From sequence record SRR22947727_1912: a DNA stretch of 37,902 nucleotides. One strand, given 5' to 3'. The notes below the pieces were generated by a model, which worked only from the letters and a program-made list of their open reading frames with translations, had not been told where the DNA came from and made no database searches. How positions within the stretch are numbered: the first letter of the stretch is position 1; the number at the start of each line of letters is the position of its first letter. Of this stretch, positions 20,569 to 25,462 are shown one piece after another. A program made the position numbers and the translations under genes.

Positions 20569-21930
20569 TCATGACGAGCGGATGGTGTCCTGCTCGATGA
20601 CCCCGTCCACTATGCCATCTTTCACGGCACCCACGACAACGGCCGAGAGGGGTGTGGATAAGAGCTCTTGGGCAAGTGATTGAACATCGCCAAGGTCCAC
20701 TCGCGAGAGGCGCTGAAGACCTTCATCGCGATCCACAAACTCGCCGGTGGACAGCTCTGAGCGCCCCAGTCTCATCATGCGTGCATCACTGCTCTCCAAA
20801 GCCAAAGCTGACGCTCCTGCGATGTTACCTCGGGTTCGACTGAGCTCCTCTGCCGTGATTCCCTGATGGGCGATGGAGCTCAACTCTGTGGTCATCAGCC
20901 CTGCCACCTCGGCGACATGAGCGGGAGAGGTCCCTGCCGCCATGCCAAACATGCCAGCATCGGCGTAGGCGCTGGCGAAGCTGTACACCGAATACGCCAA
21001 ACCACGTCGCTCACGGATCTCTTGAAAGAGCCGTGAGGACATTCCACCACCGAGCACCGAACTCAAGACCGACAGAGCCGGCCTGCGCTCATCGGTGGCT
21101 CGAATGCCGTGGGTGGCGAGAGCCACTACCGCTTGCTCAAGAGGTCGGGTGATGACGAGACTCTGGGGCGCACGGTCGATCTCAGCCTGAGCGACACCAC
21201 GTCTCGAGGCCGGAGCGCTGGAAACACCAAGGTCCCACCCTGCGTCGCTCAAAGCCTGTGTGACCCGCTTCACCAGGTCCTTGTGATCAACCGCACCCGC
21301 AGCGGTCACCACCAGCTCGTGGGGCCGGTAGTACCGTGCGTAGTGCTCGAGAACAGATTCTCGGGTGGAAGCACGAATGGTGTCGGGATTACCGCCAATG
21401 GGCCGCCCCAGGGGGTGAGCACGCAGGACAGTTTCGGTGATGCGCTCATGGGCCACATCGCTGGGATCATCATCGGCCATCGCGAGCTCTTCCAGAATGA
21501 CCTGGCGCTCGACTTCAAACTCCGAGGCATCGATAACCGAGGCCGCCACCATGTCCGCAAGAACTTCGATGGCCATCGGGAGATCCTGATCCTGGACTTT
21601 GGCGTAGTAGCAGGTGTGCTCTTTGGCAGTCAAAGCATTGTGCTCGCCACCCACCTGGTCAAAAGCGATGGCGATATCGAGAGCGCTCCGACGAGGCGTC
21701 CCTTTGAACAGCAGATGCTCCAGAAAGTGGGTGGAGCCATAGGCCACCGAGTCTTCGTCTCTCGATCCCACGGCAATCCAGAACCCAATGGAGGTGCTGA
21801 GGGCACCAGGGACCGATTCGCTCAGAATTCGAAGACCGCTGGGGTGGATAGTGCGCGACACCGTGGCGTCACCACTGGCCTGAAAGGACATCTCTGGGGT
21901 CTGAAGATCGAACTCAATTGCAGGCGACAT
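20569..21930 (-). CDS. M16-family (pitrilysin-like) zinc peptidase
   Basis: GSRDE, HFLEH (HxxEH), GGGMSSRLFQEIRE.RGLAYSV. This family usually lies directly downstream of pnp. Confidence 0.93.
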   Translation of the reverse strand: MSPAIEFDLQTPEMSFQASGDATVSRTIHPSGLRILSESVPGALSTSIGFWIAVGSRDEDSVAYGSTHFLEHLLFKGTPRRSALDIAIAFDQVGGEHNALTAKEHTCYYAKVQDQDLPMAIEVLADMVAASVIDASEFEVERQVILEELAMADDDPSDVAHERITETVLRAHPLGRPIGGNPDTIRASTRESVLEHYARYYRPHELVVTAAGAVDHKDLVKRVTQALSDAGWDLGVSSAPASRRGVAQAEIDRAPQSLVITRPLEQAVVALATHGIRATDERRPALSVLSSVLGGGMSSRLFQEIRERRGLAYSVYSFASAYADAGMFGMAAGTSPAHVAEVAGLMTTELSSIAHQGITAEELSRTRGNIAGASALALESSDARMMRLGRSELSTGEFVDRDEGLQRLSRVDLGDVQSLAQELLSTPLSAVVVGAVKDGIVDGVIEQDTIRSS

Positions 21931-21976
21931 AGCTTCCCCACACTACCCGGTCGGATTCCACGCTCCCTCGTTAACG

Positions 21977-22010
21977 ACTGTGGGGCCAGGCCGAAGCCTG
22001 ACCCCACAGT
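21977..22010 (-). terminator. Rhodopsin terminator hairpin with cUUCGg tetraloop
   Basis: Minus strand ACUGUGGGGUCAGGC-UUCG-GCCUGGCCCCACAGU, starting 14 nt after the rhodopsin stop. Confidence 0.75.
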
Positions 22011-22024
22011 GTTGCGTCGAAGGA

Positions 22025-22735
22025 CTAGGCCTTCTTCGCTGCGCTAACTGCGACCATACCAAAGCCGACCTTGTTGAGAACGTCAGCAATGACGTACACA
22101 ATGGCGGCGATGGCGACGGCCGAGGACACGTCAGCACCGGAGAGCTTCATGAACTCTTCGGTTGCAGTGCCGATGGGGTAAATTGCCCATCCGAGCATGA
22201 CGAAGTTACGCATGATCTTCACTGCGCGAGCAGCGTAGTCCGGCATACCATCCGTCTTGACCTGGAACACTGCGTAGACGATGTAGAACCACGCAAGGCT
22301 GGAGATGACGAACCACACGATGGTGGACATTTCACCTTCAGTTCCGACCTCACCGAGGTAACCGGTGATGATCATGATGATGTCGGCGATCACGATTCGG
22401 GTAACGAAACCCTTGGTGACAGCGCCGGCAATCGCCACAATCAAACCAAACTCCACCAGCAACAGAGGCGTGGTGAGGAGCCAGTCGATGTAACGGTAGG
22501 GCATGGTGCCCTGAACTGCATCAGCAGATCCTGCGGCCTGGTCAAAGAAGCCGACGATGTCGGTCATGATCCAGTACATGATTGCTGCGATGAATGTAAT
22601 CGCTCCTGCATAGGTTGCAGTGATGCGGTGCTCAGGCTTGAGGTCGCCTCTCTCCAGTACGAAGTAGAGGGTTCCCGCTGCCATAGCAACGAATCCGAGC
22701 ATGAAGAATGCTTGCGTAATGCTAAGCAGATCCAT
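22025..22735 (-). CDS. Type-1 microbial rhodopsin, DTE motif (predicted light-driven outward H+ pump)
   Basis: Seven TM helices. Helix C RYIDWLLTTPLLLVE, helix D ADIIMIITGY, helix F GWAIYP, helix G ADVLNKVGFG with the Schiff-base Lys. ATG 22735 has SD AAGGGAG, giving 236 aa. Confidence 0.95.
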   Translation of the reverse strand: MDLLSITQAFFMLGFVAMAAGTLYFVLERGDLKPEHRITATYAGAITFIAAIMYWIMTDIVGFFDQAAGSADAVQGTMPYRYIDWLLTTPLLLVEFGLIVAIAGAVTKGFVTRIVIADIIMIITGYLGEVGTEGEMSTIVWFVISSLAWFYIVYAVFQVKTDGMPDYAARAVKIMRNFVMLGWAIYPIGTATEEFMKLSGADVSSAVAIAAIVYVIADVLNKVGFGMVAVSAAKKA

Positions 22736-23059
22736 GATTCTCCCTTGACATGTTTCTGTAGTTATCACCGCCCGCCGCCGCGACGGACCCGTCGGCGGGT
22801 GGACGAGGAATATTCCTCTCGCGCGCTACGAATTCCTCACGGTATCCATAACTCGCGTGCGTAACGCTACTCCCGGGAGGTAATTCTTGCTAGACAAACA
22901 CTCAATTTAAGCTGGAAGTTTCCTGAATGCGGAACGAATTTCCGCGAAACTTCGCACGATGCGAAACGCTTCATTACCGATAAACCTATATTTATTCGGA
23001 TTTTATGATGAGGCGCGGTGTCGCGTTTATTGAATTCTCTTTATTTATTTCGACACGCA

Positions 23060-23092
23060 GAAGGCCGGCTCCCCGAGGGGAAGCCGGCCTTC
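23060..23092 (-). terminator. pnp terminator hairpin
   Basis: GAAGGCCGGCT...AGCCGGCCTTC stem, 12 nt after the pnp stop. Confidence 0.7.
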
Positions 23093-23104
23093 GCAGAATG
23101 ATCG

Positions 23105-25348
23105 TTACTCGTCGTCGGAGGAAGCCTCTGCTTCACCTTCGGCGAGGACCGGGGAGAGCGAAAGCTTGCCACGGTCATCAATCTTGGAGATTTCGACCAG
23201 GACCTTCTGTCCGACGGACAGGACATCCTCGACATCTTCCACTCGCTTGCCACCGGCAAGCTTGCGAACCTCAGAGATGTGCAGCAGTCCATCCTTACCG
23301 GGAACCAGTGAGATGAACGCACCAAAGGTGGCGATCTTCACGACGGTTCCGAGGTACTGCTCTCCTACCTCAGGGTTGACGGGGTTAGCAATCGCGTTCA
23401 CGCGAGCCCGTGCGGCCTCTGCGCTCTCGCCATCGACGGCGCCAATGTAGACGGTGCCGTCATCATCAATCGAGATGTCAGCTCCCGTCTCATCCTGGAT
23501 GGAGTTGATGGTCTTGCCCTTAGGGCCAATCAGCTCACCAATCTTGTCCGAGGGGATCTGAACCGTGATCACGCGAGGCGCGGTCGGTGCCATCTCATCC
23601 GGAGAGTCAATGGCCTGGTTCATCACACCGAGGATGTGAAGGCGGGCTTCCTTGGCCTGGGTCAGCGCACCGGCAAGAACGCTGGCAGGAATTCCATCGA
23701 GCTTGGTGTCCAGCTGAATAGCTGTCACAAACTCGCTGGTTCCAGCGACCTTGAAGTCCATGTCACCCAGTGCGTCTTCTGCTCCGAGGATGTCGGTGAG
23801 AGCGGCGTAGCGCATCTCTCCATCAACCTCGTCAGAGATAAGACCCATGGCGATACCGGCAACGGGTGCCTTCAGGGGCACACCGGCGTTCAGCATCGAC
23901 AGAGTCGAGGCACACACCGAGCCCATGGAGGTTGAACCGTTGGACCCGAGAGCCTCGGACACCTGACGGATGGCGTAGGGGAACTCCTCGCGACTGGGCA
24001 AGACGGGCACAAGTGCGCGCTCTGCCAAGAAACCGTGACCAATCTCACGACGCTTGGGGGTTCCCACACGACCGGTTTCACCGGTGGAGTAGGGCGGGAA
24101 GTTGTAGTGGTGCATGTAGCGCTTGGACTTCACCGGAGCGAGCGAGTCAATCTGCTGCTCCAACTTCAGCATGTTCAAGGTGGTAACACCCATGATCTGG
24201 GTTTCTCCACGCTGGAACAAAGCTGAACCGTGAACGCGGGGAATCACATCGACCTCAGCGTCAATGACGCGAAGGTCGGAGGTTCCACGGCCATCGATAC
24301 GAATGCCCTCGGCCAGAACACGGGTGCGCATAACGCGCTTCGTGACCGACTTGTAAGCAGCCGACACCATCGAGTTGGAGCCCTCTGCGAGTTCTCCAGC
24401 CTCAACCTTGGACGCAATGGCCTCCTTGACGCGAGCCTTCAGCTCGTCATCGGCAGCCTGACGCTCCTGCTTATCAGCGATCTGGTAAATCGAGGCGAGC
24501 TCCTTCGCGGCAATTCCCTCCACTGCGGCGAGAACCTCGTCGGAGTAGTCAGAGAAGACCGGGTAGTTCTCGATTTCCTTGGCGGACTGGTCAGCCATCT
24601 TTTGCTGAGCCTCGACCAGCTGCTTGAGGAAAGGCTTAGCGGCTTCCAGGCCGGCAGCGACCACGTCCTCGTTGGGCTTGGTGGCACCGCCCTGAATGAG
24701 CTCCCAGCTACCCTCGGTTGCTTCGGCCTCCACCATCATGATGGCGACGTCCTCATTGCCCTTCGCGTCCTTGACGACACGACCGGCAACAACGATGTCA
24801 AACACGGCCTCAGCAAGCTGAGAGTGCTTGGGGAAGGCGACCCACTGGTCGCCAATCAGCGCCAAGCGCACAGCGGCGATGGGGCCGCTGAAGGGCAAGC
24901 CAGAGATCTGAGTCGAGGCGCTCGCGGCGTTGATGGCCAGAGCGTCATAGAACTCGTCAGGGGCAATCGAGAGCACCGTAATAACGATCTGGACCTCGTT
25001 GCGCAAACCATCCACAAAGGAGGGGCGCAGCGGCCGGTCGATAAGTCGGCAGACCAGGATGGCCTCAGTGGAGGGGCGACCTTCACGACGGAAGAAGGAT
25101 CCGGGGATCTTTCCTGCTGCGTAGGCACGCTCTTCAACGTCAACAGTCAGGGGGAAGAAGTCAAAACCCTCACGGGCATTCTTCGAGGCACTCGTTGCCG
25201 AGAGCAACATGGTTTCTTCATCCAGGTACGCGGCAACCGCACCCTGGGCTTGTTGGGCCAAACGACCCGTTTCAAAGCGCACGGTGCGCTTTCCGAACTT
25301 GCCGTTATCCAATACGGCTTCAGCGAACTTGATTTCTGGACCTTCCAT
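23105..25348 (-). CDS. pnp: Polyribonucleotide nucleotidyltransferase (PNPase)
   Basis: [59 protein letters not shown] and S1 domains. ATG 25348 preferred on SD spacing. Confidence 0.98.
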
Positions 25349-25462
25349 TAAGGTCACATCTCCTTATTTCTCTTCGAACATGCCAAACCGACCGGTCGGG
25401 CATGGCGGCACGCCACGACGAGAGAGGGAAGGATGAGTCCACCACATACGTGGGGCCTGTTT

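Follow-up and report, generated by a model that had tools for sequence, protein, structure and literature searches.

Ideas about bacterial proton pumps rest mostly on the His-Asp pair, from the pH dependence of pumping to the counterion pKa near 7 in proteorhodopsin (PR). Can a bacterial rhodopsin without this histidine be a proton pump, and to which lineage would it belong? The question is raised by a gene in sequence record SRR22947727_1912, a stretch of 37,902 nucleotides (hereafter, the window), whose product, P0001, carries the DTE set of acceptor, Thr, and donor (D84, T88, and E95, at positions 85/89/96 of bacteriorhodopsin, BR) without a His hydrogen-bonded to the acceptor Asp (His75 in PR, His57 in the Exiguobacterium rhodopsin ESR). 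An earlier reading of the letters alone (hereafter, the original prediction) had described it as a His-less, antenna-less outward proton pump from a divergent, possibly uncharacterised clade. This interpretation proved right in substance and overstated in novelty, since the clade was already known. We give a probability of about 0.8 to the reading that the gene belongs to a Pontimonas-like bacterium of the Microbacteriaceae, is carried on the chromosome and inherited vertically, and encodes a retinal-binding, green-absorbing, light-driven outward proton pump.

P0001 is a type-1 rhodopsin closest to ESR

P0001 is a type-1 microbial rhodopsin (PF01036). In a search against PDB sequences the best match was ESR (4hyj; E 8e-49, 169.5 bits), and the other solved rhodopsins, with PRs next in line, scored at most 97.4 bits: 91.2 for the actinorhodopsin (ActR) of Rhodoluna lacicola (9hfk), 77.3 for Gloeobacter rhodopsin (6nwd), 75.5 for xanthorhodopsin (XR, 3ddl), and ~64 for BR. 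The AlphaFold2 model, built on a 50-sequence alignment, has a pLDDT of 93.8 and seven long helices (residues 3-31, 34-60, 78-102, 110-130, 136-157, 166-198, and 204-235), and its best structural match is again ESR 4hyj (TM-score 0.84, 40% identity); the structure search returned at least 343 PDB rhodopsin chains at E <= 0.001. A protein collection yielded 638 homologues at E <= 1e-10 (best E 1e-138). The 120 listed of these are 83-95% identical and all carry PF01036, and the few organism names among the matches listed are Pontimonas, Microbacteriaceae BACL25, and unclassified Actinobacteria. Given the E-values of the best homologue and of ESR and the pLDDT of the model, the identity of P0001 is far beyond chance. 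A profile search with NCBIfam gave no match to P0001; the library seems to hold no rhodopsin model reaching this protein, and the result has no bearing on novelty.

P0001 shares with ESR the signatures of helices A, C, D, F, and G, the residues Thr, Asp, and Asn at BR positions 90, 115, and 215, Leu at the color-tuning site, and a residue other than Gly at the antenna site. The motifs of helices A and D had been called BR-like, but all of them are common to ESR, and they mark the ESR neighborhood rather than a mosaic of BR and PR. Where ESR has His57, the donor Lys96, and Arg213-Glu214, P0001 has Met53, Glu95, and Ala210-Ala211; moreover, its B-C loop is longer and includes a short helix, its F-G connection is five residues longer, and it has Thr190 where ESR-type sequences have Phe or Tyr. 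With the BR of Halobacterium salinarum, P0001 has in common Thr89-Thr90, Asp115, the absence of a His partner for Asp85, and the Met before the conserved Tyr of helix B (Met56-Tyr57 in BR). It differs from BR in having Glu rather than Asp96 as donor, Asn rather than Ala at position 215, Phe at Trp138, and Thr at Trp189, and the two are far apart in the tree as well as in the PDB search.

The missing histidine is a trait of the clade

All the pump residues named in the original prediction are present: the equivalents of BR R82, D85, T89, T90, L93, E96, D115, D212, and K216 are R81, D84, T88, T89, L92, E95, D118, D218, and K222, respectively. Helices B and C align to ESR 4hyj without gaps, with Asp84 on Asp85, Glu95 on Lys96, and Met53 on His57, which bears out the Met that had been read at the His site of helix B. 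The same column holds His in 63 of 64 comparison rows of PR, ActR, or XR type. Since the only His of P0001 is H36, at the cytoplasmic start of helix B, nothing else in the protein can replace the missing partner of Asp84.

Residue frequencies in the Microbacteriaceae clade were counted on 82 distinct proteins of 92 rows, leaving out L039 and L112 (no complete open reading frame with both motifs), the blh locus L013, and L099 and L116, which duplicate the contigs of L059 and L091. Position 53 is Met in 64 of these proteins and Leu in the other 18, and His in none; the absence of the His is a trait of the clade, not a quirk of one protein. Residues R81, D84, T88, D118, W183, Y186, P187, D218, and K222 are invariant in all 82, and the retinal lysine and pocket (K222, W85, W183, Y186, P187, and D218) are invariant in all 82 clade, 13 ESR-type, and 64 comparison rows, the pocket residues being the counterparts of W86, W182, Y185, P186, and D212 of BR; the 13 ESR-type rows were chosen for Thr90 and Asp115, a set that mixes two clades of the tree. 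The donor position 95 is Glu in 76 proteins and Ser in 6. Positions 210-211, which correspond to Arg213-Glu214 of ESR, are Ala-Ala in 82/82, and Arg-Glu in 13/13 named ESR-type rows; by hand-counting, Ala210 aligns with BR Glu204. Position 190 (Trp189 in BR) is Thr in 77 and Val in 5, versus Tyr or Phe elsewhere, and the end of helix F (positions 193-195) reads (Glu/Gln)(Glu/Gln)Phe, a clade-specific pattern from which the comparison rows differ. The Phe read at the antenna-Gly site of helix E was likewise confirmed: it is Phe142, Phe in 81 of the 82 proteins, in a column that holds Gly in 36 of the 64 comparison rows, among them ActR-type, XR-type, and flavobacterial ones.

The Ser donor belongs to a sub-clade with a DTS motif that has kept Met at the His site (L059-L062, L064, L065, and L091, with copies L099 and L116). 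Such rhodopsins were found in Microcella-type and "Microbacterium"-labeled metagenome-assembled genomes (MAGs).

Position in the rhodopsin tree

We built a tree of 78 rows with IQ-TREE (LG+C20, careful search), which combined P0001 and Exiguobacterium mexicanum with 19 named loci of Microbacteriaceae, one representative without a name, further named loci of bacteria and archaea, and representatives of 50% clusters, some of which were labeled through the PDB search (P0126 and P0127 as ESR, P0154 as XR/Gloeobacter rhodopsin, and P0249 as BR). The Microbacteriaceae rhodopsins (21 rows) form one clade with support 100/100 on a long stem (0.92). Its sister, with support 80/80, is a group of 12 rows that includes Exiguobacterium, and the clade stands beside that group, not nested in it; next outward come a planctomycete/verrucomicrobial/marine-group-II set and then the PRs. 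P0001 does not nest inside a characterized clade with the same residues, its nearest characterized relative, ESR, having His and Lys at the two sites. As for the divergent, possibly uncharacterized clade of the original prediction, the clade is indeed distinct, but it is family-wide and had already been noticed in print.

Within the 12-row ESR group, Exiguobacterium alone has His, the site being Asn in five rows, Met in four, Gln in one, and Ser in one; the donor site reads K, K, K, T, N, N, M, V, I, I, I, and I, with no carboxylate. ESR is therefore the odd one out on its own side of the tree, and neither its His-Asp pair nor its Lys donor is general even inside its own group. Among these neighbors, only the Microbacteriaceae clade has both a Glu donor and a hydrophobic residue in place of the His. 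The individual ESR relatives with Asn, Gln, Ser, or Met at His57 are P0126, P0127, P0132, P0133, P0136, P0139, P0140, L095-L097, and L106 (P0126 and P0127 score 249-257 bits to 4hyj), and they have Lys, Val, Ile, Met, Asn, or Thr as donor.

The actinobacterial host, which P0001 has in common with the ActR/XR family, suggests another origin, in which P0001 is a divergent member of that family and has simply lost its His and its antenna site. Relatives of the host do carry ActR (many Microbacteriaceae matches at 25-34% identity), the ActR/XR structures (9hfk, 3ddl, and 6nwd) have the same DTE motif and seven-helix fold (TM-score 0.80-0.83), and a tree forced to join the clade with ActR/XR was 13.2 log-likelihood units worse, which the approximately unbiased (AU) test did not reject (p-AU 0.085). 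However, the maximum-likelihood tree places ActR/XR elsewhere as a separate clade, and P0001 with the ESR group inside a PR-side superclade, and each of the three ActR/XR structures scores far below the 169.5 bits of ESR. P0001 is only 23-29% identical to these structures and 27-32% identical to the rows from Nanopelagicaceae, Planktophila, Clavibacter, and Ilumatobacteraceae. Where these have Val, Ser/Ala, and Ala (BR positions 90, 115, and 215), P0001 has Thr89, Asp118, and Asn221, and it is without the His-Asp pair and without the Gly that most of the family has at the fenestration (Gly156 in XR). We consider such an origin highly unlikely, and P0001 was rightly set apart from standard actinorhodopsins.

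A proposed pump without the His-Asp pair

P0001 has an intact fold, retinal lysine, pocket, acceptor, and donor, all of them strongly conserved, and the DTE motif fits the predicted outward proton transport. P0001 is most likely a green-absorbing, antenna-less outward proton pump. By homology with ESR, PR, and BR, retinal would be bound to Lys222 and photoisomerized by light. The Schiff-base proton would then pass to Asp84, held by Arg81, Thr88, Asp218, and Tyr54 without a histidine partner, Glu95 would reprotonate the Schiff base from the cytoplasmic side, and the proton would exit on the extracellular side. Transport of another ion (Na+ or Cl-), or of protons inward, has nothing specific in its favor: the motif is DTE and not NDQ, NTQ, TSA, or TSD, Asp84 and Glu95 occupy the acceptor and donor sites, and the nearest solved relatives are outward proton pumps. 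We regard it as extremely unlikely.

ESR is described as a proton pump working over a wide pH range, with the release chain Asp85-His57-water-Glu214 (PMC11155677). This polar chain, next to Arg213, is hydrophobic in the Microbacteriaceae clade, with Met/Leu at position 53 and Ala-Ala at 210-211, and therefore both the pKa of the acceptor and the release path must be set otherwise. The release route would probably pass Arg81 and Glu129 and reach helix F at its extracellular end, where the clade-specific Glu/Gln residues 193-194 lie. Phe142 would fill the site that needs to be Gly for a carotenoid antenna; it speaks against such an antenna, so that the pump would work with retinal alone. Green absorption is argued for by Leu92, the "green" residue, and by the 538 nm of the Pontimonas salivibrio protein, and we speculate that the 18-nm shift over the PR base value is caused by Thr190, which is polar and lies close to the pocket's ring end.

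The original prediction expected a pH profile differing from that of His-Asp pumps, which is a reasonable inference in view of the pKa shift in the ESR H57M mutant (see below); from sequence, a BR-like low pKa without His and a value near 6 as in this mutant are both conceivable. Tentatively, and with the odds against it, the Microbacteriaceae clade may be seen as a natural "triple mutant" of the ESR/PR design, with His57 changed to Met/Leu, Arg213-Glu214 changed to Ala-Ala, and a carboxylate donor regained, together with Thr at BR Trp189. If this is true, the counterion pKa and the pH range would be clearly unlike those of ESR (2.3) and PR (about 7), protons would leave through the clade-specific Glu/Gln 193-194 where helix F ends, a release route unlike that of any described bacterial pump, and the red-shift to about 538 nm would be due to Thr190.

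Evidence against the proton-pump reading and alternative functions

Several points weigh against the reading of P0001 as a proton pump of an ESR-related lineage. The sister relation to the ESR group is only moderately supported (80/80), and the AU test left the joint tree with ActR/XR standing. The H57M mutation raises the pKa of Asp85 in ESR from 2.3 to 6.3 (PMC11155677, citing Balashov 2012), and, unless something compensates, pumping by a His-less protein might be weak under about pH 6. Both the release route and the part assigned to residues 193-194 are conjectural. In the full-text literature searched, outside subscription journals and supplements, we found no transport measurement for any member of the clade. 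Contigs from RNA libraries cannot prove transcription, strand, ends, or level, as DNA may contaminate such libraries. Finally, a search for the retinal-forming Brp/Blh gene (TIGR03753) gave no match in G001, the genome nearest to the window (91% complete), or in G124 and G195.

Two further readings were considered. P0001 could be a light sensor or a slowly cycling regulatory rhodopsin rather than an energy-conserving pump: without the His, the photocycle could be slower or otherwise changed, and a carboxylate donor is absent from all 12 ESR-group rows. Sensory rhodopsins typically lack a carboxylate donor, whereas E95 is kept in 76 of the 82 clade proteins. The adjoining genes encode polynucleotide phosphorylase (pnp) and a peptidase, with no transducer or signaling gene adjacent; indeed, we found no transducer-like or other rhodopsin-linked gene among the annotated genes of the window. 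The transcript appears to be monocistronic and abundant in RNA-library contigs (depths 11.6-257.5 across four runs). PMC6106888 repeats earlier statements that ESR pumps poorly and acts as a sensor, but the same paper found neither a transducer nor a motility system in P. salivibrio, and PMC11155677 describes ESR as a pump over its wide pH range. On balance, a sensory role is unlikely.

The second reading holds that the host genome cannot make retinal and that P0001 is a largely idle apoprotein. Brp/Blh is present in only one of the four same-genus genomes, G030 (locus L013), beside an extra pair of lycopene-cyclase-domain genes. However, the genomes without blh are drafts (91-97% complete), crtI and one pair of lycopene-cyclase domains are present in all four (G001, G124, G195, and G030), and the gene is strongly conserved and present in RNA libraries. 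Moreover, Aurantimicrobium minutum produces retinal and a functional rhodopsin even though it lacks the known genes for retinal (PMC7734400), and the lineage of the window may similarly depend on outside retinal or on an unknown pathway. An idle apoprotein is thus very unlikely, and we continue to favor a retinal-binding outward proton pump.

Relation to earlier work and significance

The rhodopsin of P. salivibrio was placed in 2018 in a green-absorbing Exiguobacterium subcluster, apart from the actinorhodopsins, and was found to be syntenic in acMicro-4 and Yonghaparkia (PMC6106888). It has also been expressed and binds retinal, with a DTE motif and an absorption maximum of 538 nm; in the accessible text, the transport assays covered four other proteins and not this one (PMC7979833). 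The ESR branch has been reported to include Luna1 and Luna2 actinobacteria (bioRxiv 10.1101/2022.08.01.502354), and an "ESR Type-1" clade to occur in some Rhodoluna (PMC12422013). The ESR placement of the clade and the 538 nm of one member are therefore known already, and P0001 adds a member to a clade that had been noticed. We found no discussion of the Met/Leu at the His site or of the Ala-Ala pair in the same literature. The P. salivibrio CL-TW6 protein (C3B54_11643 / WP_104913209.1) belongs to the same genus-level lineage as P0001 and differs from it by ~21% in sequence. G030 (complete, 1.8 Mb) is probably P. salivibrio; its orthologue is 79% identical to P0001 and has the same key residues, and position 141 is Trp in P0001 and Phe in this P. 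salivibrio-type orthologue.

Pontimonas and related "Luna"-type Microbacteriaceae are common in coastal, brackish, and fresh waters, and the clade rhodopsin appears in metatranscriptome assemblies of several studies. Judging from conserved residues, a whole family-wide lineage would work without the His-Asp pair, and in the ESR neighborhood His is the exception: in the tree, a single one of the 12 rows in the ESR group has it, and none of the 21 clade rows does. The clade offers a natural counterpart to the engineered ESR H57M and an inexpensive way to test what sets the counterion pKa; the pH behavior of a naturally His-less pump without the release chain is of modest, easily testable interest. 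Ecological surveys should keep sequences of this clade out of their counts of actinorhodopsins and of antenna-bearing pumps.

Gene context, distribution, and expression

The original coordinates of the gene were exact: the open reading frame runs on the minus strand from ATG (22735-22733) to TAG (22027-22025), with 236 codons and a stop (Table 1). In alignments of 12 and of 22 orthologous loci, the ribosome-binding site (RBS) AGGGAG and the first rhodopsin codons are invariant, and upstream of the RBS the loci differ in length by non-multiples of three, which identifies ATG 22735 as the start codon. On the same grounds, a GTG at 22768 was ruled out as the start.

Table 1. Features of the rhodopsin locus in the window
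Feature	Coordinates	Strand	Remarks
Rhodopsin CDS (P0001), 236 aa + stop	22025..22735	-	Seven transmembrane helices, DTE motif, retinal Lys222
RBS AGGGAG, 4 nt 5' of ATG	22740..22745	-	Read in the sequence; invariant in alignments
Metatranscriptome-contig coverage: gene, ~113 nt leader, ~20 nt trailer	22004..22848	- (inferred from gene)	7 contig pieces, 4 runs, 4 studies
Candidate -10 hexamer TAGCGT (inference)	22864..22869	-	Columns invariant or nearly so in alignment
Strong hairpin just 3' of stop	21973..22013	-	Minimum free energy (MFE) -43.5 kcal/mol, z -5.58, 0/200 shuffles as good
G+C-rich leader block: short inverted repeat, then CCGCCGACGG...GGCGGCGGGCGG	22766..22820	-	Nearly invariant, 18/22 Pontimonas-type loci
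Upstream neighbor pnp (polynucleotide phosphorylase)	23105..25357	-	TIGR02696, 1353 bits
Downstream neighbor, M16-family zinc peptidase	20569..21930	-	Weak family matches only

The window is ordinary core chromosome, with infB, pnp, ligA, gatCAB, and transporters; what we say of the genome as a whole comes from G001, the nearest one, with 59% of the sampled words in common. The rhodopsin is 100% identical in Pontimonas sp. MAG_172 (L014), where it is flanked by pnp at 100% and the M16 peptidase at 99% identity. A further 79 named loci carry it at 51-97% identity to P0001, from Pontimonas, acMicro-4, BACL25, Microcella, Yonghaparkia, Alpinimonas, some Rhodoluna, and some Aurantimicrobium. Some rhodopsin match occurs in 42 of 201 sampled genomes of the family: the P0001 type was found in 4/4 same-genus genomes (79-100% identity) and in 11 genomes of other genera (55-67%), and the matches in the rest, at 34% identity or less, are other rhodopsin types. 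The order pnp-rhodopsin-M16 is preserved in all Pontimonas-type loci. Where there is room to see them, pnp lies upstream in 43 of 67 related loci and M16 downstream in 31 of 76, these 31 all being of Pontimonas, acMicro-4, or BACL25 type. In many Microcella and Yonghaparkia loci pnp alone adjoins the rhodopsin, and neither neighbor does in Rhodoluna or Aurantimicrobium. These counts agree with the synteny reported in PMC6106888.

Thirteen RNA-labeled runs contain about half or more of the window's sampled words. At this locus, the outer ends of contigs from four runs of four studies fall at 22848, 22847, 22837, and 22828 on the leader side and at 22004 and 22015 on the trailer side, and in one run adapter sequence lies directly beyond both contig ends. 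RNA contigs were placed on neither the pnp nor the M16 side, and their absence over 22852-23150 and 21950-21990 does not mean that these parts are silent; the sharp confinement of the contigs to the gene fits what RNA would give. The gene would be transcribed alone, from a promoter ~115-125 nt upstream to the hairpin just past the stop codon, and the contig ends fit a monocistronic mRNA that starts slightly 3' of TAGCGT, which lies 16 nt upstream of the outermost contig end, and ends near the 3' hairpin. This hairpin is likely a terminator or a 3' stabilizer, with no clear U tract. A scan for sigma-70 and terminator patterns gave nothing above shuffled sequences and missed both the candidate -10 and the 3' hairpin.

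We also considered a covarying two-hairpin RNA in the leader block, where RNAalifold draws two short helices with a weak covariation term (-0.31). This candidate found no support: 60 of 500 shuffles reach the paired percentage of the drawn structure and 171 of 500 its covariation score, the MFE z-score is -0.27, and the conservation of sequence alone stands. An Rfam scan of 21800-23300 gave only sub-threshold chance matches.

For a streamlined genome, the spacer between pnp and the rhodopsin (369 nt) is long, and most of it is not conserved. The exceptions are two blocks kept across Pontimonas-type loci, the leader block 22766-22820 (minus strand), just upstream of the RBS, and a promoter-proximal block at 22887-22927 (minus strand), which includes the palindrome GGAA-N2-TTCC; both blocks may serve in regulation, perhaps by light. 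An inverted repeat at 23060-23092 (minus strand) lies directly 3' of the pnp stop, as expected of a pnp terminator, and its position, not its sequence, is kept among Pontimonas-type loci. In L059/L099, L065, L032, L041, and L044, a Microbacteriaceae-type pnp (83-86% identical) adjoins the rhodopsin in records titled Pseudomonas synxantha, Gulosibacter, or Cellulomonadaceae, which are probably mis-binned or mislabeled MAGs.

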